A stretch of DNA of 44,674 nt from Thermodesulfovibrionales bacterium (GCA_044450345.1 JBIOIY010000017.1:1-44674); one strand, 5' to 3'. Counted from the first letter of the stretch, positions 10,788-39,045 are shown. A program made the numbers and translations. Notes: a model not told the origin generated them from the sequence alone.

Positions 10788-10911
10788 CAGGAGGTAGAGT
10801 ATGGTGTCGGAGCAGCTTCTTTTATCCCGATGAATATCGGGAGGAAAGCCCTCCGAGGACCGACTGCATGTCTGACCGAGAATGAGCGACGACACTATGC
10901 GCCAGCTCCTG
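10788..10911 (+). repeat. Structured dispersed element, copy A (most divergent)
   Basis: Outer stem caggag..gtatggtgtcg / cgacactatgc..ctcctg encloses GAGCAGCTT...GCCCTCCGAG...CGAGAATGAGCGA; nested palindrome TCCCGATGAATATCGGGA. Confidence 0.7.
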
Positions 10912-11026
10912 CCTTATACAACCTCTATGCAATGAGGAATCATCAGACTAGAATGCCGCAAAAATCCTGATATACTGTGACTGATAACACTATATCACGA
11001 AAAAAGATATGTTTTGAGAGGGCTAT

Positions 11027-12193
11027 ATGACTGAAGAAGTTGTTATCGCAAGCGGGGTGAGGACGGCCGGCGGCAGCTTCGGCCGGGGGTTTAAGGACGT
11101 GCCTGCTCCGCGTCTTGGTGCGGTTGTCATACAGGAAGTGCTCAAGAGGGCTAAGGTAGGCCCCCGGGATGTCGATGAAGTCATAATGGGGAACGTTATA
11201 TCCGCGGGACTTGGACAGAACCCTGCGAGGCAGGCTGCGATATATGCCGGGCTGCCCGCGGAGGCGGGGTCCTTTACAGTGAACAAGGTCTGCGGCTCAG
11301 GGCTGAAGGCGGTAATGCTTGCAGCTCAGGCGGTTAAGGCCGGGGACGCGGATGTCATAGCTGCAGGAGGCATGGAGAATATGAGCGCCTCTCCCTTTTT
11401 GTTAAGGGCGATGAGATGGGGTGCGAGGTTTGGGCACACCCCTGCCGTCGATGCGATGATCAACGACGGACTATGGGACGTCTATAATGATTTTCATATG
11501 GCGATGACGGGCGAGAGGGTCGCCGTGAAGTACGGGATAACGAGAAGGGAGGCGGACGAATTCAGTCTCCTGAGCAATCAGAGGGCCTTTGCGGCAACAC
11601 AAGAGGGAAGGTTTCGGGAGGAGATCATACCGGTCGAGGTGCAAGGCGTCTTTGTCGACAGGGACGAGTGTGTGAGAGGTGACACGACGCTCGAAAAGCT
11701 GGCCGCACTTGCACCGGTATTCAAGGAAGACGGCATCCTCACCGCGGGAAATTGTTCGAAGCTCAGCGACGGCGCTGCCGCGGTTGTCGTGATGTCGGCA
11801 AAAAAGGCGCGGGAGTTCGGCATCATCCCGCTCGCTAGGATAATCGATTATGCGATCGGCGGAACAAGGCCGGAGGACGTGATGGAGGCCCCAATACCTA
11901 CAGTGAGAAAATTGCTCAAGAAGACCGGCTTTGCTGTTTCGAACATCGACCTTTTCGAACACAACGAGGCTTATTCTACCGCTTCGGTTGTCGTAGGGAG
12001 GGAACTGGGTATTCCGCGGGAAAAGATGAATGTGAACGGCGGCGCGGTTGCGATGGGGCATCCCATAGGGTGCAGCGGCGCAAGAATACTGGTCACACTC
12101 CTTTATGCCCTGAAAAAAAGTGGTCTTAAAAGAGGGCTTGCCACGCTATGCCTCGGCGGAGGAAACGCGCTGGCCATGATCGTGGAGAGATAG
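11027..12193 (+). CDS. Acetyl-CoA C-acetyltransferase (thiolase)
   Basis: NKVCGSG catalytic Cys, NEAY, GHPIGCSG, CLGGG. Confidence 0.93.
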   Translation: MTEEVVIASGVRTAGGSFGRGFKDVPAPRLGAVVIQEVLKRAKVGPRDVDEVIMGNVISAGLGQNPARQAAIYAGLPAEAGSFTVNKVCGSGLKAVMLAAQAVKAGDADVIAAGGMENMSASPFLLRAMRWGARFGHTPAVDAMINDGLWDVYNDFHMAMTGERVAVKYGITRREADEFSLLSNQRAFAATQEGRFREEIIPVEVQGVFVDRDECVRGDTTLEKLAALAPVFKEDGILTAGNCSKLSDGAAAVVVMSAKKAREFGIIPLARIIDYAIGGTRPEDVMEAPIPTVRKLLKKTGFAVSNIDLFEHNEAYSTASVVVGRELGIPREKMNVNGGAVAMGHPIGCSGARILVTLLYALKKSGLKRGLATLCLGGGNALAMIVER

Positions 12194-12195
12194 GG

Positions 12196-13365
12196 ATGTT
12201 TTATATAAAGGAGCAGCGGAACATCATCGATATGTTTCATTCGGATGCGGGGGAGTACCACTCGCTCCTTGAATCGATAGGCGGCTTCTGCGAAAAGGAG
12301 ATACTGCCGCGCGCAAAGAGGACCGATCAGGAGGAGATATTTCCGAAGGATGACCTGGCGAAGGTGGCGGAGAGGGGAATCTTTGCGCTCCCTTTTCCGG
12401 GACAATACAATGGAGGAGGGAAACCATTCCCTGTCTATATCGCTGCGCTTGAAATGCTCGCGAAGGCATGCGCGAATACTGCCCTGCATGTCTCTATCCA
12501 GGGGATGATCTGCGAAGGCATAAGGCTTTTCGGCGATGAAAAACAGAAAATGAGGTTCCTGAAAGAGGAGGGGCTTGTCGAGGGAAGGAGCCTAATAGCC
12601 TTTGCGCTGACCGAACCGTGCTGCGGCTCGGACGCAAAGGCGATCCAGACGAAGGCCGTGCTTACAGGAGACGGGTACATCCTGAACGGCAGCAAGATGA
12701 TGATAACGAACGCGGGGGAATCGGATTTTGCCCTGGTATTTGCCAGGACCGATAAGGGAATCTCTGCATTTGTCGTCTCTGCGCGGACGCGGGGCTTCAA
12801 CGTGATGAAGGCTATCCCCAAGCTCGGATTCAGGGGAAATAAACTGGCCGCCATTCATCTTGAGAAATGCGAGGTCGCAAGGGAAGACCTGCTTGGGGAA
12901 GAGGGCAGGGGCCTGGAATACGCAATACATATCCTCAATTCCGGAAGGATGACAATCGCCGCGATAGGCGTGGGCATCGCACAAGCGGCATTCGAAAAGT
13001 CCGTTCTTTACAGTAAAAAGAGGAAGGCTTTCGGCGAGAGTATCGCACACTTCCAGCTTGTGCAGGAAAAATTGTCGGACATGGCCACCCAGATAAGCGC
13101 TTCAAGGCTCCTCACCTGCCACGCCGCCTTCCTGAAAGAAAAAGGGGTGGACATTGCGCTTGAGGCATCTAAGGCGAAACTCTTTTCTTCCGAGACGGCG
13201 ATAAGGGTTTGCGATAATGCGATACAGATACACGGGGGATATGGGTACACTGACACGTACGATGTCCACAGGCACTGGCGGGACGCCAGGCTCCTTACGA
13301 TAGGGGAAGGCACTTCCGATATGCTCAGACTTCTGATCGCGCACCTGGCACTTAAGGAGGAGTAG
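12196..13365 (+). CDS. Acyl-CoA dehydrogenase, butyryl-CoA dehydrogenase-like
   Basis: FALTEPCCGSD, NGSKMMITN, RKAFG, QIHGGYGY, IGEGT; start ATG at 12196. Confidence 0.9.
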   Translation: MFYIKEQRNIIDMFHSDAGEYHSLLESIGGFCEKEILPRAKRTDQEEIFPKDDLAKVAERGIFALPFPGQYNGGGKPFPVYIAALEMLAKACANTALHVSIQGMICEGIRLFGDEKQKMRFLKEEGLVEGRSLIAFALTEPCCGSDAKAIQTKAVLTGDGYILNGSKMMITNAGESDFALVFARTDKGISAFVVSARTRGFNVMKAIPKLGFRGNKLAAIHLEKCEVAREDLLGEEGRGLEYAIHILNSGRMTIAAIGVGIAQAAFEKSVLYSKKRKAFGESIAHFQLVQEKLSDMATQISASRLLTCHAAFLKEKGVDIALEASKAKLFSSETAIRVCDNAIQIHGGYGYTDTYDVHRHWRDARLLTIGEGTSDMLRLLIAHLALKEE

Positions 13366-13422
13366 TACATATGCGTGCGGTCTCTTCTGATGTGTCGCAT
13401 CCAGTGGGAAGTGAGTGAAGAC

Positions 13423-14271
13423 ATGGAGATAGGAAAAATAGCGGTGATAGGAGCCGGTATCATGGGCGGGGGGATAGCCCAAACCGCTGCCCAGAGCGGG
13501 TTCGACGTTCTGCTAACGGATATGTCGGAGGAATATGCTGCCGCCGGTCTCTCGAAGATAAAGGATAGACTTGAAAAACGGGCAGCAGAAGGTAAAATCG
13601 GTTTCGGGGAGAAAGAGAAGATACTCTCAAGTATCGAAATATCAGCGCGCCTGGAAGATTGCCGCAAGGCAGACCTTGTCATCGAGGCCGTGACAGAGAG
13701 AGAGGATGTAAAGATAAAGATATTCAAAGAGCTGGATAGAGTCTGTCCCGCCGAAACGATTTTCGCCACCAATACCTCGACCATCCCGATCACGAGACTG
13801 GGCGGCGCAACGAAAAGGCCGGAACGTTTTATCGGCATGCACTTCATGAACCCGGCATATAGTATTCGGCTCGTTGAGGTGATCAGGGGTATGGGTACTT
13901 CGGAAGAAACGGTAAATATCATAAAAAACGTTTCCGGAAAAATGGGAAAGACCGCAGTAGTCGTCGAAGATTCCCCGGGCTTTGTATCAAACCGGGTGCT
14001 GATGCCGATGATAAACGAAGCGATATTCTGCCTGCAAGAGGGTTTATCCACAAAGGAGGGAATCGATGCGGTCATGAAGCTCGGGGCAAACCATCCGGTG
14101 GGCCCGCTCGAACTCGCGGACTTCATAGGCCTGGACACATGTCTCGAAATACTGGAGATACTCGAGGCTGAGTTGGGAGAGAAGTTCAGGCCCTGCCCGT
14201 TGTTGGGGAAGATGGTTGCGGCAGGCAAATTTGGGAGAAAAAGCGGCGGGGGATTTTATGGATACCGGTAG
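13423..14271 (+). CDS. hbd: 3-hydroxybutyryl/3-hydroxyacyl-CoA dehydrogenase
   Basis: GAGIMGGG Rossmann motif, ATNTS, GMHFMNP, PGFVSNR, GRKSGGGFY. Confidence 0.9.
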   Translation: MEIGKIAVIGAGIMGGGIAQTAAQSGFDVLLTDMSEEYAAAGLSKIKDRLEKRAAEGKIGFGEKEKILSSIEISARLEDCRKADLVIEAVTEREDVKIKIFKELDRVCPAETIFATNTSTIPITRLGGATKRPERFIGMHFMNPAYSIRLVEVIRGMGTSEETVNIIKNVSGKMGKTAVVVEDSPGFVSNRVLMPMINEAIFCLQEGLSTKEGIDAVMKLGANHPVGPLELADFIGLDTCLEILEILEAELGEKFRPCPLLGKMVAAGKFGRKSGGGFYGYR

Positions 14272-15031
14272 AGCGATAATAGTCGAGCGGGAAAATGAGA
14301 TCGGAAGAATTATCCTTTCGAGTCCGGAAACTTTGAATGTTCTCGATACCCCTGCACTGAGTGCCCTTCAGGAAGCAATGGCTGATCTGGAGGAAGACCA
14401 GCGGACAAAAGTTGTAATTATCTCAGGCGTAAAGCATTTTTGCGCAGGGGCGGACATCAGGGAGATGAAAGACAAAAATCAGGAAGAGGCAGAGGCATTT
14501 GCAAGGCTGGGACACCAAGTATGCGATACGATCGAGAGTATGGAAAAACCGGTGATAGCTGCGATCTGCGGCTATTGCCTCGGCGGGGGATGCGAGGTTG
14601 CGCTCGCCTGCGATATCAGACTGGCCTCCGAAGATGCGAAGTTCGGCCAGCCCGAGGTCAATTTCGGCCTTATTCCGGGATTTGGCGGGACGCAGCGGCT
14701 GACAAGGTTGGTGGGCATCGGGAGGGCGAAGGATTTAATTTTGACGGGGCGCATTTTTGACTCGGGAGAAGCCGAATCCATGGGGCTTGTCAACAGTGTG
14801 GTAAAAAACGATGAACTTCTTCATAAGGCCGATGAGACGGCAGCAGCGCTTTTGCAGAAGGGTCCTCTTGCCCTTGGAGCGGCAAAGAAGTTGATTAACG
14901 GAAGCCGGGAGATAAAGAGGGGGCTTGAGATCGAAATCGCCTCTTTTTCAAAATGTTTCGCCACCGAAGATCATAAAGAAGGCATCAATGCGTTTCTCGG
15001 CAAAAGGCCGCCGAGATTCAAAGGCAAATAA
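14258..15031 (+). CDS. crt: Enoyl-CoA hydratase (crotonase)
   Basis: FCAGADI, LGGGCE, FGQPE..G.IPGFGGTQRL. Confidence 0.88.
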   Translation: MDTGRAIIVERENEIGRIILSSPETLNVLDTPALSALQEAMADLEEDQRTKVVIISGVKHFCAGADIREMKDKNQEEAEAFARLGHQVCDTIESMEKPVIAAICGYCLGGGCEVALACDIRLASEDAKFGQPEVNFGLIPGFGGTQRLTRLVGIGRAKDLILTGRIFDSGEAESMGLVNSVVKNDELLHKADETAAALLQKGPLALGAAKKLINGSREIKRGLEIEIASFSKCFATEDHKEGINAFLGKRPPRFKGK

Positions 15032-15094
15032 TACAAAAAAAGTTAATAGTGAGAAGTAGGCGGTACGTAAGCGGTAGGGGAAAGTCAGAAACCT

Positions 15095-15631
15095 CTATTT
15101 CTTATCTTTTTTCGAGATATACCAGATCGCGGCAGCTCCGGCGAGGGTCGCGGCACCGGCCCCGATGCCTATCTGCCACAACTTCTTCCTCTCCATTATT
15201 TTTCTCTCGACTATCTTTCCATATCTCTCAGCAACCAGTTCGCAGTGTCTCACATCCTCTTCGGAGAAGCCGAATATAGAGACAAGTATATCTATCCTCT
15301 CTTCTATAACCTCCTGCAGGAGAGACCAGTAACGGACTTTGGGCATCGAGGACCTGTATCTCCTCATCTCTTTTTCTGTTGAAATCGACTTAAGGAACCT
15401 TTCGAGCAGGGTCTTGTCGGCGCCCCGATAGATCGGCAGTTCCGGGTCGTCGATTCTCCGAAGAAAAGGCCACTGGCATTCTTCCTCTAACTTGAAAAGC
15501 TCGGGCCAGGACCTCTTCCCGAGGTGACGGAAGATTACCGACTTTTTCACCGAATAGTAAAACTTCTTAAGCTCTCCTTCGGTGAAGCCCGTATCTTTAA
15601 AAATGGCCGACAGTTCTTTAAAATGAATCAT
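15095..15631 (-). CDS. Hypothetical protein with a C-terminal membrane anchor
   Basis: 178-aa ORF with a hydrophobic tail IGIGAGAATLAGAAAIWYI followed by basic residues; overlaps the upstream YkgJ gene. Confidence 0.6.
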   Translation of the reverse strand: MIHFKELSAIFKDTGFTEGELKKFYYSVKKSVIFRHLGKRSWPELFKLEEECQWPFLRRIDDPELPIYRGADKTLLERFLKSISTEKEMRRYRSSMPKVRYWSLLQEVIEERIDILVSIFGFSEEDVRHCELVAERYGKIVERKIMERKKLWQIGIGAGAATLAGAAAIWYISKKDKK

Positions 15632-16475
15632 TCTCTCTGCTCTTATGCGGTGACCTTAAGCCAATTGTATCATGCGCTTCGCCATTTCGCGACCCATCCA
15701 CGAGGTGAATCCTGCCGTTTCTTTCCCTGACCGCCATCCCCCTGCAAGCAAGTAGGGCGAAGATCGGGCGGCCTAAGATAAACAGTTCAACCGCCAGAGG
15801 CAGCGCAAAAACGGAAACGGCTTTGGAGCGGATATAGAGGTCCTTCCGGACAAGTTCAGCCAGTTTCTTGAGGGGCGTTGCGTTGTCTGATTCCTCAGAG
15901 AAAGTAGAAAGTATGGTTTCCATTTCCAGGACAGAACATGTCTCTTCATGGTCCTCGATAAACTTCAATATCGGGTCCCCGGGATTGATGATATCCGCGC
16001 GTTTCAGGGTGTCTTTGTATATGACGGATAAAAGTTCCCTGGTGTCCCAGCATTTCAGGATACGGCATTCTAACGGCCTGTGAGAATAAATCATGCACGC
16101 CGCCCCTTCTTTATTCAGAAAAATGCATTCCCAGCTCTTGCTATTACCCGCGATCTTGATGAGTTCCTCCGGTATCGGCTGCAGAGTCTCGCCGGTCGGG
16201 CCATAGGCGAGTTCACCCTTTCTGAGGGTGATGAGATGGTGGGTTCCTATGTGTCCTTCACGGATAATCCGTCCGTCCTCAGCATGGAGGGTCGGCCCCC
16301 CTTTTGCGCAGCAGGTCGCACACCTTATACAGCTTGTCCGATTTGTTGAAATCTTATTCATCGATAACAGTGGTTGTAGTGTCCTGCGTTCCGCATCCTC
16401 ATTAAAATACCATTCCCGACCGATAATTGTCTTGTTCTTATTGTTTCGGCGGGCAAAAAGATCAGGAATCGTCAT
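15618..16475 (-). CDS. YkgJ-family cysteine-cluster (CxxCxxCC) protein
   Basis: CIRCATCC...CIFL...CMIYSHRPLEC; true start may be ATG 16361. Confidence 0.8.
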   Translation of the reverse strand: MTIPDLFARRNNKNKTIIGREWYFNEDAERRTLQPLLSMNKISTNRTSCIRCATCCAKGGPTLHAEDGRIIREGHIGTHHLITLRKGELAYGPTGETLQPIPEELIKIAGNSKSWECIFLNKEGAACMIYSHRPLECRILKCWDTRELLSVIYKDTLKRADIINPGDPILKFIEDHEETCSVLEMETILSTFSEESDNATPLKKLAELVRKDLYIRSKAVSVFALPLAVELFILGRPIFALLACRGMAVRERNGRIHLVDGSRNGEAHDTIGLRSPHKSRENDSF

Positions 16476-16534
16476 GTGTGATACTATATGACGGTTAGAC
16501 AGAGTTTAAATCGAGAGAACCGGAGCCGCAAAAA

Positions 16535-17722
16535 ATGTATCTGACATCATTTATACACCGAAAAGCATTGTTCGACATCGCCGAACGCTGGTTCTGCAAT
16601 TGCCTTGAACCGGGCGATGCGCGGGCACTCACGGAGATTCTTATCTGTGATGGCTTCGTAGTCGGCGAAACCCTGGTGGCGCTGGCCAAGCGGCTCGCGG
16701 ACGTTACTCATGGGAGGCCCTTTTATCAGAGACATATTCGCTTAAAGGGGGAACTTCGGGACCTTATCTGTCTCGATGACAGGGACGCGACCCCGAGGAT
16801 GAAGGAGCTTTTCAGGCGGTATCGGGAAAACCCTGATTATTATTATCGGGAGGCGCCTATTAGCGGGGTGATGTGCCTTGACGAAGAAGACCGTCTGCTC
16901 GGCTTGCTGAGGATAAAGAGGCCGAAAAGGATCGCTGAAAAGGCGAACCGGAGAATCGCTGAGTGGATTTTTGAAAATGTCCTCGGGAGGGCCCAAGAGA
17001 TGGCCGAGGAGAGGGCGAGACTATCCGGTGTCCCTTTCGAAAGATTTGTGACTCCTGCGGAAGAAATGATGAAAGAATTCGTACGGGCCGAAGAATTTAT
17101 TGCCCGGAGCTTTAGAGACGGTGCAATCAGGTTCGACAAGACCGCGTTAACGATACAGGATGTGGGCGCTGTTAAGATTGTGGCCGACAGCGAGGAGCTG
17201 AAAGGCCTGGAGAAGACTCTGGCGGCGGCTCCGGACATCACCATCCTTGAAAGGGAAGATTTCCGCGGAGATTATCAGGCCACCAACCTGGTCCTTGAGG
17301 TGCCATGGGACGCTGAACATGTCTGTCGAAGATATAGGGAGTGCAGGGCTTGGGAAAAATACCTGGGCAGGGGAATCCCGGAAAAGGACCTGATAAAGGG
17401 TTTGGAGCCCTTCCTGGTTGATGCAGAACCGCAGATACACATAGAGTTGATTCTCTCCACGTTTCCTGACATGGTTGAATCGGAGCTTGGAAATAGTATC
17501 CATGAGAAGAGGATAATCGCACAGAGGGACAATAAACGCTACAAAGGATATATCCCAATGAACGTGGAGTTTCTTGTGGAATCCCTTTTTGCAGTGGGCT
17601 TCAGCCCGAGGACCGATATCGACCAGGTACCGATAAAGCTTTGGGGGAGGTACCTGCCTGAGACAATGAGTTCCTATATCCGGAAATTACATAACCTTCC
17701 GGAACATGATCTCTTCCATTAA
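16535..17722 (+). CDS. Conserved hypothetical protein with a divergent RelA/SpoT-type nucleotidyltransferase motif set
   Basis: 395-aa ORF with RIK..RIAEK, QDVGAVKIV, GDYQATN, IELILST..MVESELG...H in the synthetase motif order. Confidence 0.55.
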   Translation: MYLTSFIHRKALFDIAERWFCNCLEPGDARALTEILICDGFVVGETLVALAKRLADVTHGRPFYQRHIRLKGELRDLICLDDRDATPRMKELFRRYRENPDYYYREAPISGVMCLDEEDRLLGLLRIKRPKRIAEKANRRIAEWIFENVLGRAQEMAEERARLSGVPFERFVTPAEEMMKEFVRAEEFIARSFRDGAIRFDKTALTIQDVGAVKIVADSEELKGLEKTLAAAPDITILEREDFRGDYQATNLVLEVPWDAEHVCRRYRECRAWEKYLGRGIPEKDLIKGLEPFLVDAEPQIHIELILSTFPDMVESELGNSIHEKRIIAQRDNKRYKGYIPMNVEFLVESLFAVGFSPRTDIDQVPIKLWGRYLPETMSSYIRKLHNLPEHDLFH

Positions 17723-17852
17723 GGATGCGGCTTGCGGCGGCGTCTCTTTGCACAAAAATATTGTCCGGGACATCATAGTAAAAAAATTACGGCAAAAAAG
17801 TGCGCAAAAAGCCAAAAATGGTCTAAAATAAAAATAAGAGTTAAATCACTGA

Positions 17853-18038
17853 TTGGAGAATATCTTGGAAAAGAAAACGTGTCTTGAGTGTTTCAATCTC
17901 ATCCGCACCCAAAACAATAAAGTTAAATGCATATCACCGGTAGGCAAGTTGAAGAAAGAGTTGCCGTCGAATACGCTTCCCAGGTCGTTTGAGGTTCTTG
18001 CCGAGAACTGTCCGGGGTATAGTACGGAGGAGGACTAA
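17853..18038 (+). CDS. Small Cys-containing hypothetical protein
   Basis: 61 aa, CLEC...C...C, TTG start; fills an otherwise empty intergenic gap. Confidence 0.4.
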   Translation: MENILEKKTCLECFNLIRTQNNKVKCISPVGKLKKELPSNTLPRSFEVLAENCPGYSTEED

Positions 18039-18136
18039 GTCCCTCCTTTTGCCTCTCCTTAGTGACTTCTGACAAAGAGAATGCGAGGTTTTCGGTTCAG
18101 GATCTGAAACTGTGCAAGATGTGTGTGTATCCAGGG

Positions 18137-18769
18137 TCAGAATAGCCGCCATCCCCTGCTGATCTTTCTCGTGTCCACTCCACGGTAGTTTCCCCTCTTC
18201 AGCAGTGTGATGAAATTGTTGTGATCGATCCTTTCCGTGAATCCGGTAAAACAGGACCCGACTTCCCCAGGCTCATGCGCGTCGGACCCGCCGGTGTAAG
18301 GGATGCCGAGGTCCTCTGCTGTTTCCACGGCTTTCTCATTAAAGGCGGCCGGGTTGGCACCGTTAAAGCCTTCGATGGCGCACAATCCGGGCAGGGTCAG
18401 CACCTTTTCTCCCAGGCTGTTTCCCCGCCTGTAGGGATGAGAGGGAATGACAATGCCTCCGGCCCGGTTGACGATATTCAATACCTCCTCTATAGGAGCA
18501 TGCGGGCCCAGGAGCATGTCAGTATCGACGCCGAAGATCAGACAATGTCCCTCTTCCGAAGAAAACTCGACACCCCTGAATATCGTGATCGCATCCCTGT
18601 ATTTTTCCTTCAGCGCCTCTACGGGTTCGGACGCCTCGTAAGAGTAATGTTCGGTAAATGCTATCCCGTTTAATCCCAGTTCTACGGCCCGGATAACGGA
18701 TTCTTCCGGCTCCGAGTCGGTATCTCCGCTATATTTTGAATGAACGTGAAGGTCTATCTTAAACCGCAT
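18137..18769 (-). CDS. PHP-domain metal-dependent phosphoesterase
   Basis: DLHVHS, TEH, GVE..S..GH, SHP, GGSDAH. Confidence 0.88.
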   Translation of the reverse strand: MRFKIDLHVHSKYSGDTDSEPEESVIRAVELGLNGIAFTEHYSYEASEPVEALKEKYRDAITIFRGVEFSSEEGHCLIFGVDTDMLLGPHAPIEEVLNIVNRAGGIVIPSHPYRRGNSLGEKVLTLPGLCAIEGFNGANPAAFNEKAVETAEDLGIPYTGGSDAHEPGEVGSCFTGFTERIDHNNFITLLKRGNYRGVDTRKISRGWRLF

Positions 18770-18796
18770 TTCTTATCATACCAGGGAAGAGGGCCT

Positions 18797-19507: not shown

Positions 19508-19624
19508 ATCCCTCGGCTCTTAGGAACGGTCAGTCCCTTATTCAGGATCATATCGACCATTATTTTTCTGTCCTGATAAAGCAGTCTTCCGGCCATTCTG
19601 CAAATATCCAATGATCGCTATGGA

Positions 19625-20182: not shown

Positions 20183-20270
20183 ATGATGTCCCCCTTTTTC
20201 CGCTCTGCCTGTAATCGATAATAACCTATTTGACTCAAATAATTCTTAACTGGCAGTGCCTTTGTTATTG

Positions 20271-20298: not shown

Positions 20299-20358
20299 GT
20301 AGATAGGACACTTTTAAAAAAGAGAAAAGGTTGACTGTCAAAATACGGAGGTGAGTGT

Positions 20359-23839: not shown

Positions 23840-23899
23840 TTTAGGAGAACTCTTCGGTCACGCACTATTCATAAATTTCCTGGCTCCGGAAAGATATTT

Positions 23900-24040
23900 A
23901 GGCCGGACGGGGTGTGGGAGCGGCTTCATTTTCCGACCTGCCTGCCGGCAGGCAGGTAGTCTGATAACCTGGTTATCTGATATAAAGAGGAAAATGCCTC
24001 GGAGCGTAGCGAGAATGAGCGACGATACCCTGTCCAGTCT
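23900..24040 (+). repeat. Structured dispersed element, copy B
   Basis: Outer stem aggccggacggggtgt / ataccctgtccagtct; core GAGCGGCTT-CATTTTCC...GGAAAATG-CCTCGGAGCGTAGCGAGAATGAGCGA; nested ACCTGCCTGCCGGCAGGCAGGT and GATAACCTGGTTATC. Confidence 0.85.
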
Positions 24041-24073
24041 CTGAAAACGAAGCCTATACTAATAGTGGCCTGG

Positions 24074-27808: not shown

Positions 27809-27973
27809 TGCAGGAAGAAGGGGACTGTCTTTGAGCGGCTTCAATTTCTCGTATTGCCGCCGCAGGCCAAGCGAGAAATTGCCCCGGAACTTGCCCGCCT
27901 GAGGCGGGCAAGCGACCTGCCTGCCGGCAGGCAGGGAATGAACGAAAAGATTGTTCCCTTCTCCTTATCTGCA
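27809..27973 (+). repeat. Structured dispersed element, copy C
   Basis: Outer stem agaaggggactgtcttt / aaagattgttcccttct; core GAGCGGCTTCAATTTCTCG...CGAGAAATTGCCCCGGAAC..GCGA..GAATGAACGA interrupted by CTTGCCCGCCTGAGGCGGGCAAG and CCTGCCTGCCGGCAGGCAGG. Confidence 0.85.
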
Positions 27974-29276: not shown

Positions 29277-30607
29277 ATCCTCTCCGTCCTCTTTTCGAGC
29301 CGAAGTCAGTCGCCCTGGTTGGAGCTTCCCATTCGGAGACGAGACTCGGCGGGGTTGTGCTCAAGAATCTCCTGAGGTTCAAAGGGAAGGTCTATCCCGT
29401 AAACCCTAAATACGACGAACTTATGGGGATCAGGGCGTATCGGGAAGTCTCAGATATCCCGGAGCCTGTAGACCTCGCACTTATCCTGAGGCCGGCCCCC
29501 GAAGTTCCTGAAATACTGAGGGAGTTCAGGAGGAGGGCGAGGTCTGTGATCGTGATGAGCTCCGGATTTGCGGAGGTGGGCGAGACCGCGCTCCAGGACG
29601 AGGTGGGTCGCATCGGTAAGGAATCCGGTTTCAGGACGGTGGGGCCGAACTGCATGGGGCTATATAATCCCCACAAGGCACTCGACACGTTCTTCCTTCC
29701 GCAAGAAAGACTCAGAAGGCCGAAGAGAGGCAACGTGGCGATAGTCTCTCAAAGCGGCGCGATCCTTTCCTGTCTTCTCGGGGCGGTCAGGGATGCCAAT
29801 GCCGGCGTGTCGAAGGCGATAGGGTACGGTAATGCCGTCGATGTGGCGGAAGCGGACCTTTATGAATATCTTGCATATGACAAAAAGACCGAAGTGGTTA
29901 TTTCATATATAGAGTCAGTGGACGACGGAAGAAAGTTCATCGCGAGGGCGAAGGAATTGACCGATAAGAAACCGCTTCTTATTCTCAAGGCGGGCAAGGG
30001 GTCGAGCGGTCAGGCGGCTGCTTTCTCGCATACCGGCAGGCTTGCGGGAAGGTACGAGGTCTTTCATTCTATAGTCAGACAATTTGGTATCCGCGAGGTC
30101 GCAGATTTCGATGAACTTTTGGACGCGACCAAGGCGCTGTCGTATCAAAGGCCGTCGAAGGGAAACAAAGTATGCATAATTACCAACGGCGGCGGGTCCG
30201 GAGTGCTTGCAGCGGATGAATGTATGAGGCAGGGACTTGATGTGGTCGGCATATCAGGAGAGACGAAGGCCCGCCTTCAGCATCTCTTTCCTCATTTCTT
30301 TGTGGTCAATAACCCGGTAGACCTGACCGCCCAGGTGAGGGACGAAGATTATGTGACGGTGCTCAGGGAACTCGCAGACGATTACGACGGTTTTTTACTT
30401 ATCTCCCTTCCGAATGTCTTCGGTATTACCGAAAAGCTCGGCGAGCTGCTGACGGCGGCAAAGAAAAACCTGAATAAGCCAGTCACCGCCAATATAGCCC
30501 AGAGCGGGATTACCGGAAAAATCACTTCTATGCTCGAACGGGCGCTGATACCCGTCTACCCTTCACCTGAACGGGCGGTAAGGGGACTCAAGGCGCTGTT
30601 GTCTTAG
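29273..30607 (+). CDS. ADP-forming acetate/acyl-CoA ligase alpha-subunit-like protein
   Basis: PKSVALVGAS, GPNCMG, SQSG, phospho-His SHTG, TNGGG.GVL; ATGA overlap with E2; no ATP-grasp domain. Confidence 0.85.
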   Translation: MNPLRPLFEPKSVALVGASHSETRLGGVVLKNLLRFKGKVYPVNPKYDELMGIRAYREVSDIPEPVDLALILRPAPEVPEILREFRRRARSVIVMSSGFAEVGETALQDEVGRIGKESGFRTVGPNCMGLYNPHKALDTFFLPQERLRRPKRGNVAIVSQSGAILSCLLGAVRDANAGVSKAIGYGNAVDVAEADLYEYLAYDKKTEVVISYIESVDDGRKFIARAKELTDKKPLLILKAGKGSSGQAAAFSHTGRLAGRYEVFHSIVRQFGIREVADFDELLDATKALSYQRPSKGNKVCIITNGGGSGVLAADECMRQGLDVVGISGETKARLQHLFPHFFVVNNPVDLTAQVRDEDYVTVLRELADDYDGFLLISLPNVFGITEKLGELLTAAKKNLNKPVTANIAQSGITGKITSMLERALIPVYPSPERAVRGLKALLS

Positions 30608-30671
30608 CCCCGGAATGCAACACTCTTTGTCTTAGTTTTGTTTATACATAGATATGATCGCTATGCGGATA

Positions 30672-30792
30672 ATGCCGCATAGGACTTTTTTTGAGCGGCT
30701 TCAATTTCTCGTATTGACCCCGCCGCAGGCGGGTCGAGAAATTGCCTCGGAGCGGAGCGAGAATGAGCAAAAAAAATAGTCCTATACGGCAT
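30672..30792 (+). repeat. Structured dispersed element, copy D
   Basis: Outer stem atgccgcataggac-T7 / A8-tagtcctatacggcat; core 30693-30768 differs from copy E at only about 3 positions. Confidence 0.9.
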
Positions 30793-30878
30793 ACTCTCCC
30801 CAAACCCCCGGGATTTTGTCCGCAAAACCGTATGATTTTTAAAGACAATATTCACAATTTGCATTATAATTACATAAG

Positions 30879-31601: not shown

Positions 31602-31604
31602 ATC

Positions 31605-33110: not shown

Positions 33111-33205
33111 AGGACCTGCGAAGGAGCGCTGCAGAAAAACGGTTTTATTTTACATATATATTATCATAGCGCAAATTTAAAATACTGTTAATACGGAGGA
33201 AAGAC

Positions 33206-35632
33206 ATGCCGCCCAAACCACTCAGCAGCGAGGAACTTTATTCGTGCTGCGATCCTGCACTGTTTACGTTCTCGACCACTGACGAACTTCCTGAACTCAC
33301 GGAAACAATCGGTCAGATCAGGGCGTTGAACGCGATCGATTTCGGGCTGAATCTCGACAGCAAGGGCTTTAATATATATGTCTTGGGTGAAAACGGAACG
33401 GGGAAATCCACGACTATCAAATCGATCCTGAACAAGAAGGCGGCGGGAGAGCCGGTACCAACCGACTGGTGCTATGTGTACAATTTCAAAGATCCAGACA
33501 TACCGCTGACGATATCCATGGAACCTGGAAGGGCCTCGGTGTTCCACAAGGACATGGAAGAGCTGATAAAGATCCTTAGGGTCGAGATACCGAAGATATT
33601 CGAATCGAAGGAGTATGAGAAACAGAAGAACAAAATACTGGAGGAGTTTCAGCAGAGGCAGAAAGAGATGTTTTCGGGTCTGGAGGAAGAGGCTCACTCC
33701 AAGGGGTTTTCGATACGAAAAACGGTCAGCGGGCTGATGATAGTGCCTATCAAAAAGAGCGGAGAACCCCTTACTGAGGAAGAGTATGAGGCGCTCGACG
33801 AAAAGACGAGGGAAAAGATCGACGAGATCGGCAAGGGGCTCCAGGAGAAATTGAACGATGTCGTCCGCGAGGTGCGGGAGAGTGAAAAGAGCGTGAAGAA
33901 CGCCCTGTCGCAGCTCGAGAGGGAGGCGACGCTCTCCGCGGTCGGTCACTTCATGGAAGAGATGAAGAACAAGTACAGGGACAATGAAAAGATAAGCGCG
34001 TACCTCATGGCCGTGACAGAGGACATTCTCGAACATATCGATGACTTCAAGGTCCAGGAAGAGCAGACACCTCCCCTTCCTTTCATGAGGATGCAGAAGG
34101 CAGAGCCCACGTTCACGCGATATATCGTGAACGTGCTTGTTAACAATGGGGACTGCTCCGGGGCTCCCTGTGTATTTGAAAGCAACCCGACGTATTTCAA
34201 CCTCTTCGGACGGCTTGAATATAAGTTCCAGTACGGCGTAGCGACTACCGATTTTTCGCTGATAAAGGCCGGGTCGCTGCACAAGGCAAATGGCGGCTAT
34301 CTTGTGATCAACGCCCTTGATCTCCTGCGGAACCTCTTCTCCTATGAGACGCTGAAGCGGGCGCTCAGAAACAGGGAGATTAAGGTGGAGGACGTCTGGG
34401 AGCAGTACCGGCTTATGTCTACAACGACGCTGAAGCCCGAGGCGATCCCTCTTAATGTGAAGGTCATTCTCATCGGCAACCCTTATCTCTACTATATGCT
34501 TTTCAGCCTTGACGAGGAATATCGCGAGCTGTTCAAGGTGAAGGCCGATTTCGACAGCAGGATGGACAAGACCGCAGAAACGGTGGGGAAATATGCTGCT
34601 TTTGTCGCCAGCACCTGCAAACAGGGGAAATACCTTCCCTTCGACAGGTCCGGCGTCTCGAAGATAGTAGAGTACGGATCGAGACTGGCAGAGCATCAGG
34701 GTAAATTGTCCTCAAGGTTCAGCGAGATCGCCGACGTGATCAGGGAGGCCAATTACTGGGCGAAAAAGGCGGAGAGCGGTATAGTCAAGGACGATCATGT
34801 GGAAAAGGCCCTGAGGGAGAGGATTTACAGGGTCAATAAGATAGAAGAACGTCTGCAGGAGATGATCGTAGAGGGGACCCTTATCGTCGATACCGAAGGC
34901 GAGAAGGTCGGCCAGATCAACGGCCTCGCTGTTATGGGGATGGGGGACTACCAGTTCGGGAAACCTTCGAGGATCACCGCGAGTACCTATGCAGGCAAGG
35001 CAGGCGTCGTCAATATCGAGCGCGAAACGAAGATGAGCGGCAGGATACATGAAAAAGCGATACTCATCATCACCCATTTTGTCAATAGCACCTATGCCAG
35101 GAAGAAGCCGATAAGTTTTTCCGCCTCTATCACATTCGAGCAACTCTACGATATGGTAGAAGGCGACAGCGCCTCATGCGCCGAACTCTATGTGATACTC
35201 AGCAGCCTTGCCGGCATCCCCTTAAAGCAGAATTTTGCGGTCACGGGGTCTATGGACCAGAACGGAGATGTCCAGCCCATCGGCGGCGTCAATGAAAAGA
35301 TAGAAGGATTCTTCGACCTCTGCAAGGTCCGCGGGCTTGACGGCATGCATGGGGTGGTCATACCGAGGAAGAACGTGATACATCTCATGGTCAAGCAGGA
35401 GGTCGTGGACGCCGTAAAGGAAGGCAAGTTTTTTATCTACCCGATAGACAAAGCCGGTGAGGGGATGGAGATATTCACCGGCATGCCGATGGGGGAACTG
35501 AGGGATGACGGGACGTATCCTGAAGGCACGGTAAATTATCTCGTGGCGAAGAGGCTTGCGGAGATATCCGAGGCGATGAAGGACAAGAAGGACGAGTCGA
35601 AGGACAAAGATAAAGAAAATAATGACAAATGA
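33206..35632 (+). CDS. Lon-like ATP-dependent protease (LonB/LonC-type, S16)
   Basis: Walker A GENGTGKS, coiled-coil insert, GSLHKANGG, GDSAS catalytic Ser, GGVNEKIEG Lys. Confidence 0.88.
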   Translation: MPPKPLSSEELYSCCDPALFTFSTTDELPELTETIGQIRALNAIDFGLNLDSKGFNIYVLGENGTGKSTTIKSILNKKAAGEPVPTDWCYVYNFKDPDIPLTISMEPGRASVFHKDMEELIKILRVEIPKIFESKEYEKQKNKILEEFQQRQKEMFSGLEEEAHSKGFSIRKTVSGLMIVPIKKSGEPLTEEEYEALDEKTREKIDEIGKGLQEKLNDVVREVRESEKSVKNALSQLEREATLSAVGHFMEEMKNKYRDNEKISAYLMAVTEDILEHIDDFKVQEEQTPPLPFMRMQKAEPTFTRYIVNVLVNNGDCSGAPCVFESNPTYFNLFGRLEYKFQYGVATTDFSLIKAGSLHKANGGYLVINALDLLRNLFSYETLKRALRNREIKVEDVWEQYRLMSTTTLKPEAIPLNVKVILIGNPYLYYMLFSLDEEYRELFKVKADFDSRMDKTAETVGKYAAFVASTCKQGKYLPFDRSGVSKIVEYGSRLAEHQGKLSSRFSEIADVIREANYWAKKAESGIVKDDHVEKALRERIYRVNKIEERLQEMIVEGTLIVDTEGEKVGQINGLAVMGMGDYQFGKPSRITASTYAGKAGVVNIERETKMSGRIHEKAILIITHFVNSTYARKKPISFSASITFEQLYDMVEGDSASCAELYVILSSLAGIPLKQNFAVTGSMDQNGDVQPIGGVNEKIEGFFDLCKVRGLDGMHGVVIPRKNVIHLMVKQEVVDAVKEGKFFIYPIDKAGEGMEIFTGMPMGELRDDGTYPEGTVNYLVAKRLAEISEAMKDKKDESKDKDKENNDK

Positions 35633-36552
35633 ATCACGCTCTGTGGTTCCTGCAATGTCTGCTCGTCGTAATCGTCACGCTTCCTATAGCGCTGTTGCCT
35701 TATAGACTGGCCCTCAGGGTCGGCGGTCATCTCGGTGAACTGCTTTTCCTTTGCTGGCGGAGCAGGCGAAAGATAGCGATAGAGAACCTTAAGGCGGCCG
35801 TCTCAAGGAAAGCACTGACGATCAGCGCCACCCCCGAAGATGTCATAAAGGAGAATTTCAGGAACCTCGGAAGGTCTTTTGTGGAAGTAGTGAAGATCTA
35901 CTACGGACTCGGCGATCACATAATCAGGGGCGTCAAGATCAGAGGGGCGGAGAATTTCGTGAGGGCTAGCAGGAAGGGTATGGGGACGCTCATCATTACC
36001 GGCCATTGCGGGAATTGGGAGCTCAACGCCCTTGCAGCCGCCGGAAACCTGACGAAGATACATGTTGTGGCAAGGCCTATTGACAACCCTTATCTTAACC
36101 GGCTTGTAGAAAAAACAAGAAGGAAATACGGCAATAGGGTGATATATAAAAAAGGCGCGCTCAAGAAGATATTGTTCGCCCTTTCAAAAAACGAGACCGT
36201 AGTGATACTTATGGACCAGAGCGTTGTAATATCCGAGGGGGTCATGGCCGATTTTCTCGGGAAGAAGGACTATACGATCAAGACACCGGCCCTCATAGCC
36301 TTTAAGGCAGGATCACCGGTTCTGCCGGCTTTTATCAGGAGGTCCGGGGACGGTCATATAATAGAGATCGGCGAGGAGTTGATTCTCGACAGGTCCGATG
36401 GCGGCGAAAAGACAGTGTACGCCAATACAGTAAAAATGTCTCAAAGCATAGAGGAATACGTGAGACAAAACCCGGCGGAATGGCTTTGGATACACCGGAG
36501 GTGGAAAAGGATAAGTGATCCGGCAGTGAGTGCGGAGAATTCTTCCCAATAA
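35629..36552 (+). CDS. Lipid A late acyltransferase (LpxL/HtrB family)
   Basis: GHCGNWE, MDQ, PAEWLWIHRRWK. Confidence 0.88.
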   Translation: MNHALWFLQCLLVVIVTLPIALLPYRLALRVGGHLGELLFLCWRSRRKIAIENLKAAVSRKALTISATPEDVIKENFRNLGRSFVEVVKIYYGLGDHIIRGVKIRGAENFVRASRKGMGTLIITGHCGNWELNALAAAGNLTKIHVVARPIDNPYLNRLVEKTRRKYGNRVIYKKGALKKILFALSKNETVVILMDQSVVISEGVMADFLGKKDYTIKTPALIAFKAGSPVLPAFIRRSGDGHIIEIGEELILDRSDGGEKTVYANTVKMSQSIEEYVRQNPAEWLWIHRRWKRISDPAVSAENSSQ

Positions 36553-36603
36553 AGCCGGGGACGGTCTTCTCCGAAAAATTGTTATTAAACCATAAACGGC
36601 CTG

Positions 36604-36642
36604 AAAAAAGCACCTGTCAATTTTGACAGGTGCTTTTTTTTT
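36604..36642. terminator. Rho-independent terminator, bidirectional-looking
   Basis: aaaaaa-gcacctgtca-attt-tgacaggtgc-ttttttttt, a perfect stem downstream of the lon-lpxL genes. Confidence 0.88.
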
Positions 36643-36718
36643 AGGATGGCTTTTTAATGAATGATAGTCGGGAAAGAACAGGATGTTCTCACGTTATGGG
36701 GGAAATGCGGAGGGGAAA

Positions 36719-37189
36719 ATGAAGCACCATGGGATTACTCTCATCGAATTGGTCGTTGTAATGTCTGTCATCGGCATTCTCACAGTTGCCCTGGGGTTTG
36801 AATATTACGACTGGGGGAAAAAGTTTGCGGCTGAAAAGATCACAAAAGAGCTCTATACGGACATGATGCATGCGAGGATGATGGCTATTACGCGAAGCCG
36901 CGAACATTACGTCATCCTTGGGGCAAGGTCTTATTCGGTCGTTGAGGACACGAACGATAACGGGGACTACGACGTCGGCGACGCAGTGCTCCCGTCGTTC
37001 CCCAAATCCGTTTCCTATCCGTTGGACTGGAACAACAAGTACGCCGTGAGTAAAACCACCTTTGACAGAAGAGGGATCATCTCAGGACTGAGAACGATAT
37101 GGGTCACTGAGATCGACGCGGACTTTAATTGCATTAAAGTATCGATGGGAAGGATCATTATGGGACAGCATGACGGTACGGAGTGTTAG
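36719..37189 (+). CDS. Type IV minor pilin / GspH-FimT-like prepilin
   Basis: Class III signal G^ITLIELVVV with E5; ARMMAI; C-terminal Cys pair; GGAGG RBS before ATG 36719. Confidence 0.85.
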   Translation: MKHHGITLIELVVVMSVIGILTVALGFEYYDWGKKFAAEKITKELYTDMMHARMMAITRSREHYVILGARSYSVVEDTNDNGDYDVGDAVLPSFPKSVSYPLDWNNKYAVSKTTFDRRGIISGLRTIWVTEIDADFNCIKVSMGRIIMGQHDGTEC

Positions 37190-37273
37190 GCGAAATAAAT
37201 GGCGGGAGTAATATACAAGGCACTAGACTTGCTCTAAGTATTTTCATTATTACGAGAAGTCCTGAAAAGCATA

Positions 37274-38266
37274 TTAGCGGCACTGGGAATTGTCTACACA
37301 CCTCACATCCGGCTCTAAGTGCCCTCCGTAATAATAATATCCGTGCGCGGGACAGCCGCCTGTACAGGAATTCTTGTTGGGGCAGGAACCGTTCGCACAA
37401 CTGTTGACTCTGCAATGCCTGAACAGATCGAGCTTAGGGTTTGTCCATATCGTGAAAAGGCTGTCGTCAAAGATATTACCCAGATTGAACTCTTCGAAGT
37501 GCTGAAAGAGGTTGCAGGGGTATACAGAACCGTCCGGCATCACCGCGAGTTTGCGGACACCACCTGCACAGCGGACCCCTTCGGGGAGCGATTCTTTTTC
37601 GAAGCATGAGGTGTTTACCCTTAAGATCTCCACATACGGGTTATTCCGCTTTAGCTCCTCATGAAACTCCCTGAAGGCGCAGTAGCCTAATGCGGCATTT
37701 CTCAGTGTTGTGTCACGAGTCATGAGGTCCATATGGATAAGGCAATAACGTTTTACTCCCATTTCCTGAATAAGGGTGACGATGTCCTGGATATCTGCCA
37801 TGGTTTCTCTGCTGACCACTGTCTTTACAATCGGGTCGAGCCGGGATGAAACGAGTTCGGCGACACTCGCGACTGCGCGATAGAAATGATGGGAATTGGT
37901 CATGCGGTTGTGTTTCTCTTCAGTGCTGCCTTCCAGCGATACACCGATATTGAACTTTTCAGGGTCCAGGGCAGCAAACAACTCCATCATGTCCGGGGTG
38001 CTGCCATTTGTGCTCAGGTTGACCGACCTGCCGCTCTTTATTGCGATATTTACAAAATCGGGCATCCAGTCGAGAAGAAGCGGTTCTCCGCCCATGATAT
38101 CGATTTCTCCGATACCGTGACATGAGAGGATGTCCAGGAGTGTGAGGGCGTTGTCGAATGTCATGTCAGCCGTGCAAGTGTGAAAAGGATTAAAACAGAA
38201 CCCGCATCTCTGATTGCACCTATAAGTCGGATAGAGCTGGATGAACTGAGGTAGGGTGAATTCCAT
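37274..38266 (-). CDS. Radical SAM protein with SPASM domain
   Basis: CNQRCGFC, GGEPLL, CAGG...GSVYPC, C...C....CTGGC. Confidence 0.9.
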   Translation of the reverse strand: MEFTLPQFIQLYPTYRCNQRCGFCFNPFHTCTADMTFDNALTLLDILSCHGIGEIDIMGGEPLLLDWMPDFVNIAIKSGRSVNLSTNGSTPDMMELFAALDPEKFNIGVSLEGSTEEKHNRMTNSHHFYRAVASVAELVSSRLDPIVKTVVSRETMADIQDIVTLIQEMGVKRYCLIHMDLMTRDTTLRNAALGYCAFREFHEELKRNNPYVEILRVNTSCFEKESLPEGVRCAGGVRKLAVMPDGSVYPCNLFQHFEEFNLGNIFDDSLFTIWTNPKLDLFRHCRVNSCANGSCPNKNSCTGGCPAHGYYYYGGHLEPDVRCVDNSQCR

Positions 38267-38270
38267 CGGA

Positions 38271-38846
38271 TTACAGGCCCACGAGGGTCTTGCCTGCCTC
38301 GAAGGCGTCTGTCAGACCGGTCGGATGGTTAAGGATCGCACCTTTCGCATCGACGCCGAGAAAACTAAGCACTTTGTGCTCGCCGACGCTTACCGTCCTG
38401 AAGAATGCCTTTGCAGTTGCATCTGCGCATTCGACACCGACTTCCTTTTTCATTCCGCCGACGACGATAAGGAGCCCCTTGCGGCCATATTCACCTGGAG
38501 AAATCGGTTTCTTTAGGAGGTATTTTTCGCACCAGAAGCTCTGGCAGCGGTCTATCATCGCCTTTGATTGAGCCGAAAGGCCGAAGAAGAAGATCGGAGA
38601 GGCGAAGATGATCCTGTCTGCCGTCCTTATCTCCGGGTATATCTTCGTCATGTCGTCGTCAAGTATGCATTCGCCTGTCTTCTCGCACCCGCCGCAGTCC
38701 TGACAGGGCCTTATATTCATCAGGTTGAGGGTAAAGGTAGTAACGTCCCCGCCGGATGTCTCCTTCACTCCCTTTATCGCTTCTTTCAGGAGTAATTCGG
38801 TGTTGCCGTCTTTTCTGGGGCTTCCGAGAAACGCGATTGTCTTCAT
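38271..38846 (-). CDS. Iron-sulfur flavoprotein / flavodoxin-family protein
   Basis: GSPRKDGNT, CQDCGGC...C, ASPIFF. Confidence 0.88.
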   Translation of the reverse strand: MKTIAFLGSPRKDGNTELLLKEAIKGVKETSGGDVTTFTLNLMNIRPCQDCGGCEKTGECILDDDMTKIYPEIRTADRIIFASPIFFFGLSAQSKAMIDRCQSFWCEKYLLKKPISPGEYGRKGLLIVVGGMKKEVGVECADATAKAFFRTVSVGEHKVLSFLGVDAKGAILNHPTGLTDAFEAGKTLVGL

Positions 38847-38927
38847 ATAAGAACATTATAGCAGGACGGAGGGCTGCGGTCGATTCCATACAGAAAATAA
38901 TCTCAAGCCGCATTATTCGATTCGCGG

Positions 38928-39045
38928 ATGCAGGAGGGTGCTATCTTCTCGCTCATTCTCGCGCCGCTCCGAGGCAATTCTCGACCCGCCTGCGGCGGGT
39001 CAATACGAGAAATTGAAGCCGCTCGAAGACAGCCCCCTCCTGCAT
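38928..39045 (-). repeat. Structured dispersed element, copy E (inverted)
   Basis: Minus strand reads atgcaggagggggctgtcttc-GAGCGGCTTCAATTTCTCGTATTGACCCGCCGCAGGCGGGTCGAGAATTGCCTCGGAGCGGCGCGAGAATGAGCGA-gaagatagcaccctcctgcat. Confidence 0.9.

Follow-up and report, generated by a model that had tools for sequence, protein, structure and literature searches.

Foldable MITEs (miniature inverted-repeat transposable elements) have been described from bacteria, with Correia/NEMIS, ERIC, RUP, BOX and QMITE2 as examples, and insertion sequences (ISs) of the IS1380 family make target duplications of 4-5 bp. The attC sites of integrons, ~60-140 nt in length, fold on one strand, with the folding strand antisense to the genes. 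MITE transcripts are generally reported to fold into stable stem-loops (PMC10969869). Against this background we studied a window (the whole stretch of DNA analyzed, 44,674 nucleotides) that constitutes contig C17 of a metagenome-assembled genome (MAG) from a Thermodesulfovibrionales bacterium (GCA_044450345.1 JBIOIY010000017.1:1-44674; hereinafter G000; 3.19 Mb in 86 contigs, 51% GC, 91% complete), in which an initial annotation had reported five dispersed intergenic copies of an unannotated structured element. All five copies of this element, which we call the Y element, are present at the reported places, each lying between open reading frames (ORFs), and we judge that they are probably old copies of a MITE family with a structured interior, the Y module, and IS1380-type ends. 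The foldable bacterial MITE is known as a kind; what sets this variant apart is that its junction core is conserved from phylum to phylum, independently of the terminal inverted repeats (TIRs).

The architecture claimed for the element holds in all five copies: a long outer stem (P1) is followed by GAGC(G/A)GCTTC, a P2 hairpin, CC(T/C)C(G/C)GA(G/A), a P3 hairpin whose size varies greatly, CGA..GAATGA(G/A)C(G/A)A and the returning arm P1', which gives a fold in the order P1, junction GAGCGGNTT, P2, CCTCGGAG, P3, CGAGAATGAGCGA, P1'. The core measures 110-165 nt, or ~165-215 bp including the ends, and contains no ORF. A motif search of G000 recovered 19 copies, an nhmmer profile 35 (E<1e-8) and a covariance model built from 33 aligned copies (R1) likewise 35, in agreement with nhmmer; an additional short, degenerate copy lies on contig C2. 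The copies are locally clustered, with five in 28 kb of the window as against an average of ~1 per 91 kb, and four in 20 kb on contig C1. The initial annotation had expected a large genome-wide family, and the 35 copies in G000 and the extension of the family into relatives bear this out. Within the genus, R1 finds 82, 5, 0, 39, 0, 33 and 1 copies in seven congeners; beyond it, 18 of 24 further genomes of the same family and 7 of 16 genomes from the other families of the order have matches. In an even sample across the phylum, with 22 candidates scored per genome, 11 of 150 other genomes match at E<=1e-6, eight of them in the same order. A pattern comprising the middle and 3' junctions recovered at least 129 stretches in public genomes, mostly MAGs labeled Nitrospirota or Thermodesulfovibrionales, with the remaining matches labeled Planctomycetota, Latescibacterota, Gemmatimonadota, Desulfobacterales or candidate phyla. 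Of the first 100 of these public loci, 96 match R1 (93 over the full model), with an element GC content of 37-72%. None of the 4227 Rfam models matches the window at gathering score or any of the five copies at E<=10, and an abstract-level literature search returned no published description of the element or its core strings.

Evidence for the nature of the element comes from its ends. A complete unit consists of TTAG, the 17-bp TIR CCCAYWTWATTCATAAA, a 5-12 nt spacer, the P1-core-P1' module of 110-160 nt, a second spacer of 8-12 nt, the inverted repeat and again TTAG. Such units, with the Y module between both TIRs, occur in the relatives G001, G011, G015 and G017, in many MAGs and in G000 itself, where one copy, on contig C22, has both TIRs and TTAG. 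A shared flank motif in fixed orientation is seen in the G001 copies and in some G000 copies; among the 96 foreign copies matching R1, nine have TTCATAA in the 5' flank, where its complement does not occur, and ten have TTATGAA in the 3' flank, as against one with the complement there. The TIR pattern TTAGCCCAYWTWATTCATAA (<=2 mismatches) is present in 16 of 41 relatives, often as inverted pairs 190-260 nt apart, as against two hits in all for the reversed control. Across these 41 genomes, both the Y element and the TIR are found in 15, the Y element only in 11, the TIR only in one and neither in 14 (Fisher p=0.002, Spearman 0.66; both tests are overstated because the genomes are related). We then considered 24 non-redundant TIR-bounded Y elements, for which the search pattern had required TTAG as the left 4-mer. 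On the right, 17 of them have TTAG and one has CTAA, as expected of an inverted repeat, which points to a 4-bp duplication with target preference, the sequence being constant. Relative to the TTAG strand the Y module lies in either orientation equally often (12 vs 12). Two other explanations of these motifs were rejected: TTAG serves as the stop codon of the upstream gene in only two of the 24, and no ORF lies downstream of the conserved flank motif that would make it a gene start.

The same ends bound a candidate autonomous partner. At a locus in a Nitrospirota-labeled MAG (L559), the Y-element ends enclose 1.66 kb of DNA that contains two ORFs (237 and 225 aa), which match Pfam PF13701 (E 2.4e-70 and 2.2e-75) and pass the NCBIfam model NF033539 for the IS1380 family transposase (193.7 and 196.2 bits; cut-off 180). 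The two are halves of a transposase split by a stop, and the interior of this locus has no likeness to the Y module. In G019, a genome of the same family as G000, the IS end is found at five contig ends (99-100% identity over 125 nt), with a shorter match inside a sixth contig; its position at contig ends indicates that the IS is multi-copy and unassembled there. PF13701 is detected in seven of the 41 relatives, and an uninterrupted IS1380-family transposase frame of 438 aa lies at G020:C171. Elements that combine the same ends with yet another interior also exist: four of the ten elements listed are of this type, all in other phyla, and one more is found in G012. These elements with IS1380-type ends and unrelated interiors are L494 (G012:C85:42-250), L534, L547, L597 and L604, and some same-end elements lie in MAGs labeled Zetaproteobacteria, Achromatium and Gammaproteobacteria.

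The family thus combines short multi-copy elements, an autonomous element with the same ends, presence/absence polymorphism and, in complete copies, TIRs with a target duplication. Accordingly, the proposal that the fold reflects selection rather than MITE copying sets up a contrast that we cannot uphold: in relatives the same Y module lies between 17-bp TIRs with a TTAG duplication, and these TIRs are the ends of an IS1380-family insertion sequence. According to the initial annotation, a strong likeness to a known IS end would remove the element's novelty; the flanks show such a likeness, and the structured core does not.

Mobility of the element is evident from the varying copy number within the genus and from its orthologous sites. 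We compared the orthologous spacers in congeners, whose genes are ~75-84% identical, as the initial annotation had proposed, and found the sites of the five window copies (A-E, in window order) variously filled, empty or inverted among G001 and G003-G006. At site A, G004 has a copy of the same subfamily in the opposite orientation, G006 and G003 are empty, and G001 has a different repeat. Site B is empty in G004, G006 and G001. Site C is filled in G004 by a copy in the same orientation with the same P1 and a different P2b and P3, and is empty in G006 and G001. At site D, G006 carries an opposite-orientation copy in the same spacer and G004 is empty, while site E is empty in G005. In this comparison the congener spacers are too diverged for boundaries or duplications to be read exactly at any of the five sites. 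In old orthologous copies, the outer stems are decaying. The public runs found for a 10-kb stretch were of DNA and none was of RNA; they contain related strains, whose contigs break at Y copies and give imprecise skips, and no exact empty site was found in these strain contigs. One strain contig lacks 23867-23993, which leaves copy B truncated; a further skip covers 30599-30825, in the region of copy D; and in other strains 38861-39114, which includes copy E, is replaced by 1598 other letters. As a separate instance of strain-level variation beside copy E, 36982-37089 is replaced by 102 other letters in related strains, and the place in G004 that corresponds to the surroundings of copy E is occupied by ~4 kb with three ORFs.

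The interior of the element shows extensive covariation. RNAalifold applied to the 33 aligned G000 copies predicts 32 pairs, 29 of which have compensatory double changes: P1 has 19 bp, GC:GC comes after a tandem GA/GA mismatch, the P2 base has 8 bp, and a CUC/GAG helix lies below P3. In these copies 90.9% of the cells are paired, as against 70.2% in shuffled controls and 40-52% with the partner slid, and the 213 double-change cells (68 in the control) were reached in none of 500 shuffles. The 96 foreign copies, in an alignment fitted to R1 and with 3' junctions fixed by the search pattern, have 94.2% paired cells (66.6% shuffled, 40-49% slid), 804 double-change cells as against 222, and a covariation score of 0.707 as against 0.204. 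The unpaired junction bases are the most conserved part of the element; for instance, the 5' junction AGCGG.TT is >90% conserved in the 96 copies, though it lies outside the search pattern. Both the G000 and the foreign copies hence support the covarying helices with fixed junctions first noticed in the window. The description of P1 as four unrelated sequences has to be revised, as P1 instead falls into recognizable types common to several copies and genomes. The young G001 copies display P1 in a few shared types, and P1 accordingly belongs to the element. Cores that are 85-95% identical may bear different outer P1 sequences, with a mean identity of 0.30-0.33 over the outer 12 nt and 0.56-0.67 over the inner 12 nt. 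A derivation of the outer P1 arms from the target was considered and is weakened: outer P1 is unrelated on similar cores, but whole P1 types are common to young copies.

The fold is specific to one strand, as had been suggested from the five copies. With RNA parameters the GAGC-first strand is the more stable in 32 of 33 G000 and 88 of 96 foreign copies (120/129), and with DNA parameters in 30 of 33 and 88 of 96; the mean folding energies of the two orientations are -61 and -53 kcal/mol. The excess of G-T over A-C oppositions, originally counted by hand in P1, likewise recurs in the 33 copies (hand sum), with 66 G.U vs 15 A.C cells in P1 and 83 vs 25 in all helices; the binomial p of 2e-8 is overstated because many cells are inherited between related copies and are not independent. 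This folding asymmetry goes with the strand of the element irrespective of the direction of the neighboring genes. Short forms of P3 have a C-GNA-G triloop in 15 of 18 cases, whereas longer forms have few GNRA loops and no UNCG loops; from what is known of DNA mini-hairpins, this loop pattern leans weakly towards a DNA fold over an RNA fold.

Covariation of this kind might in principle arise without function, if the arms of a palindrome corrected each other by hairpin-templated repair or template switching. Such arm-to-arm correction would account for stems that are perfect though 6 of 20 positions differ between related copies of one MAG, and for cores of 85-95% identity with different outer P1; nested palindromes of several unrelated families, which are abundant in G000, are also in keeping with it. 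It leaves unexplained the conservation of the junctions, the preference for G.T over A.C on one strand and the decayed outer stems of old copies, and we regard it as highly improbable.

By a crude ORF call (corrected by NCBIfam naming for one gene beside copy C), all 35 G000 copies are intergenic. Fifteen lie antisense and six sense in tandem contexts, ten between convergent and four between divergent genes, with none in other contexts. The 61 non-redundant copies from other MAGs, examined with 2.5-kb flanks, comprise 26 antisense, six sense, nine convergent and four divergent cases, together with ten in crude ORFs and six at locus edges. Pooling the tandem contexts gives 41 antisense vs 12 sense copies (p=8e-5), and nine of the ten convergent G000 copies are antisense to the nearer gene end. 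Within operons the copies fit tightly, with median distances of ~17 nt from the preceding stop codon and 22 nt to the following start. The flanking ORFs are housekeeping operon genes, including trpE/G and aromatic amino-acid, rhamnose, ABC transporter and two-component genes, and no transposase, integrase or reverse transcriptase was found among the 150 of the 239 listed flanking ORFs that were scanned with Pfam. A scan for promoters and terminators revealed no excess over shuffled sequences, with 25 simple terminator sites as against 18.6 +/- 4.4.

This tight fit between the genes of real operons, together with a hairpin that is strong in either orientation and the stem-loops generally reported for MITE transcripts, raises the prospect of intercistronic hairpins similar to REP or ERIC that hosts have adopted to stabilize the upstream mRNA or attenuate read-through. 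We consider this quite improbable as an account of the family, given that the orthologous operons of congeners lack copies and that terminator sites are close to the shuffled number; moreover, it leaves the invariant junctions and the preference for one strand unexplained. Under the MITE reading, the antisense excess in operons would instead reflect selection against the more stable GAGC-first fold in mRNA.

Several observations weigh against the derivation of the window copies from a MITE with IS1380-type ends. A clear TIR is missing from most G000 copies, the five window copies among them. The 5' flanks of copies A-E score 11, 14, 12, 14 and 14 of 21 against the TIR consensus, where the 99th percentile of random windows is 14, and any TIR remnants at these five copies are at best marginal. 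As a set, the G000 flanks do exceed random windows (p=3e-11 for 5' and 1e-4 for 3' flanks, where a composition bias is possible) and the same flanks read the wrong way (paired Wilcoxon p=2e-4; scores of at least 14/21 in 11 vs 3 of 70). Eleven relatives have the Y element and no TIR match (<=2 mismatches), among them G004 with its 39 copies, and none of 18 inspected high-GC MAG copies from other phyla shares a TIR. These TIR-less high-GC copies nonetheless keep a perfect, copy-specific P1 of 20-27 bp, and their P2 and P3 covary too; in one Planctomycetota-labeled MAG, P2 and P3 differ with compensation and the junctions are identical. Such copies tell against the MITE reading because a transposase cannot recognize them and plain decay would not keep their stems perfect. 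Further, the IS1380 partner was not found in G000 by a search for PF13701, in a MAG that is 91% complete and with IS copies often unassembled, and the orientation seen at convergent sites in G000 is reversed in the other MAGs, where six copies are sense and three antisense to the nearer gene.

Two facts, namely the invariance of the junctions across phyla and the perfect pairing of copies without end repeats, thus go beyond plain MITE copying and are not explained by it. One alternative is that the Y module is a functional structured nucleic acid that rides MITEs only in some lineages, either as an RNA (a ribozyme, a protein-binding RNA or a processing signal) or as a single-stranded DNA site for recombination or nicking, a possibility that we entertain but hold to be doubtful. 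In its favor, all three helices covary around invariant junctions in hosts whose elements range from 37 to 72% GC; the TIR-less copies from Planctomycetota-labeled and other MAGs have a perfect copy-specific P1 of 20-27 bp; 120 of 129 copies fold in a strand-specific way; optional hairpins occur only at loops and junctions, where the fold is preserved; and short P3 forms favor C-GNA-G triloops (15/18), with GNRA and UNCG loops scarce. On the other hand, copy numbers of 0 to 82 within one genus imply that the host does not need the element. The strand able to fold is, within operons, mostly the template strand (41 vs 12), and no separate promoter would fit there, both of which make a GAGC-first RNA product unlikely for most copies. 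The lack of a protein partner among the Y1 and IS110 candidates, the decaying outer stems of old orthologous copies and the absence of an Rfam match also speak against it. In a bolder form, the Y core would be a new class of structured single-stranded nucleic acid with its own activity, spread across phyla by hitch-hiking on MITEs and still selected after the ends had decayed, which we rate as unlikely; a self-processing RNA or a folded-DNA site for an enzyme of the host or the element would exemplify such a class. A functional module, adopted hairpins and arm-to-arm correction are each compatible with the MITE reading.

Taking the MITE reading, an IS1380-family DDE transposase presumably moves the element in trans. 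The 35 G000 copies would probably be immobile relics of past bursts, because no IS1380 transposase was found there and the ends are mostly eroded. The Y interior, which is not IS-derived, may have been kept because folding on one strand benefits the element, perhaps by drawing its ends together when the DNA is folded or extruded, or perhaps by allowing operons to tolerate insertions. The MITE reading would explain a conspicuous unannotated repeat in the operon spacers of an entire order of anaerobic Nitrospirota, a repeat that breaks metagenome assemblies and is now linked to an IS1380-type transposase; the covariance model and the TIR pattern allow it to be masked or annotated. If it is true that the fold aids transposition or itself acts as RNA or DNA, the element would be one of the rare instances in which a MITE's cargo, and not its ends, is under selection.

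The window copies as delimited by R1 illustrate the parts of the element. Copy A (10790..10909, plus strand), with a P2 of the subfamily TTTTATCCCGA..TCGGGAGGAAAG, separates divergent genes for an acyl-CoA dehydrogenase-like protein (minus) and a thiolase (plus). Copy B (23898..24042, plus) lies between convergent MlaA-like (plus) and MlaC/HpnM-like (minus) genes, and its P2 loop holds an optional module, a perfect palindrome of 20 nt (23937..23956). A candidate eroded left TIR, ACTATTCATAAATTT (23864..23878, plus), precedes copy B, with a marginal score of 14/21 against the TIR consensus that equals the random 99th percentile. Copy C (27813..27965, plus) is situated between divergent genes, ~100 nt upstream of a gene for a 2-oxoacid dehydrogenase E2 component, and carries the same 20-nt palindrome module (27916..27935), which here separates CGA from GAATGA in the 3' junction. 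Copy D (30673..30791, plus) follows an acetate-CoA ligase-like gene in the sense orientation and is in turn followed by a plus-strand ORF. Its parts, all on the plus strand, are the P1 5' arm (30672..30692); the 5' junction GAGCGGCTTC (30693..30702), which could form a GA/GA tandem mismatch with the 3' junction and then GC:GC pairs; the P2 hairpin CAATTTCTCG...CGAGAAATTG with an inner hairpin (30702..30744); the middle junction CCTCGGAG (30745..30752); a minimal P3, CGGAG, with a C-GNA-G triloop (30753..30757); the 3' junction CGAGAATGAGCAA (30758..30770); and the P1 3' arm (30771..30792). Copy E (38929..39044, minus) is sense to the two minus-strand genes around it and downstream of a flavorubredoxin-like gene; by eye, candidate eroded TIRs can be placed on the minus strand on its 5' side (39068..39089; flank 14/21, marginal) and its 3' side (38902..38923; flank 12/21, weak). 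By their NCBIfam names the neighbors in the window are ordinary metabolic genes, including those for Mla proteins, the E2 acyltransferase, an acetate-CoA ligase subunit and LeuA. Elsewhere in the window, a strong hairpin at 36547-36699 with A/T runs on both sides is likely a bidirectional terminator; it gives weak chance matches to several small-RNA families in Rfam.

The 20-nt perfect palindrome has 11 exact copies and ~20 near copies in G000 and is nested in at least four different repeat families, with sites at window positions 23937-23956 and 27916-27935 and on contigs C1, C4, C9, C22, C23, C25, C40 and C76. It occupies two positions in the Y element, namely the P2 loop (copy B) and the 3' junction (copy C and others), and is also found at the apex of at least three other G000 repeat families; it resembles a nested mobile mini-palindrome or a shared module. 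Three copies have an optional 27-nt hairpin at the border of the 3' junction and P1' (C23:23781-23807, C44:8324-8350 and C2:41474-41504). Since loops and junctions are invariably the places where these optional modules lie, the fold is kept. A second repeat family of G000, with at least ten copies, combines a G-rich arm, the 20-nt palindrome and then ...GGGGGCGTTATCTTAAG (C4:61335, C4:89588, C9:1827, C10:852, C11:39087, C12:25013, C25:22068, C38:12670, C72:10854 and C79:6189), and a third has the arms CATTCCCGC/GCGGGAATG. Additionally, two head-to-head pairs of Y copies, 48-75 nt apart, occur at C10:25272-25599 and C56:7146-7444, the latter with a single TIR-like motif between both copies.

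Three other transposase families were tried as partners and rejected. Counts of the Y1/RAYT transposase domain (PF01797) run opposite to the copy number in the genus (Spearman -0.98, n=8, the genomes not being independent): Y1_Tnp is absent from G001 (82 copies) and G004 (39 copies), and six are found in each of G003 and G005, which have no copies. The co-occurrence with a Y1 (HUH) transposase that would mark a REP/REPIN-RAYT element or an IS200/IS605-derived PATE is thus not seen. G000 does have a RAYT-like Y1 transposase gene of ~228 aa (C32:15800-16560) with inverted GGGACACATCCC-type palindromes on either side, apparently a separate REP/RAYT pair unrelated to the Y element. IS110 counts track those of the Y element only within the genus, and a 2x2 table over the 41 genomes gives p=0.18. 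The Y element as an IS110 target or cargo was likewise dismissed, as the ends of a pair of 1.5-kb IS110 copies in G000 are unrelated to it. This IS110-family element is found at C69:168-1688 and C27:17391-18913 (90.6% identical); after one of the two copies, its end (GGGTGTCCTCTAAAT) recurs as a short tandem repeat. Finally, a DUF772/IS5-type transposase had been guessed from a short N-terminal peptide at a contig end of G021; none of 18 PF05598 loci has an adjacent TIR (<=4 mismatches), and no further copy of that contig end was found.

Compared with known systems, the Y element is most like bacterial MITEs, in being small, non-coding, multi-copy and intergenic, in having TIRs with a short target duplication, in folding into stem-loops and in showing bursts and decay that result in patchy copy numbers; bacterial MITEs are moved in trans by an IS transposase, and the same is presumed here. 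Unlike in those MITEs, conservation reaches furthest in the interior rather than in the ends, the interior being a three-way junction with ~30 fixed junction bases and covarying helices that persists across phyla and GC contents, also without TIRs, and there is a marked antisense bias within operons. Complete Y elements have the same 17-bp ends and the same TTAG duplication as the IS1380 element, from which the Y elements differ in having no transposase and a dissimilar interior. Like REP/REPIN sequences, Y elements are palindromic repeats that lie between genes, often at gene ends, and fold in a strand-specific manner; unlike in the REPIN-RAYT system, Y1_Tnp does not follow the element, and the RAYT-like gene inspected in G000 has a different flanking palindrome. 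The likeness to integron attC sites lies in the conservation of structure over sequence, the one-strand fold, the position just after ORFs and the antisense folding strand. In contrast to attC (the R-box consensus of which was unscored), Y copies are dispersed over many contigs in both orientations, without an array or an integrase context, their ends are IS1380-type TIRs and their neighbors are housekeeping operon genes. With the multi-copy RNAs and ribozymes of Rfam, such as hammerhead, twister, pistol, hatchet and HEARO, the Y element shares a conserved junction core with variable helices, and it is set apart from them in that its copies match no Rfam model.

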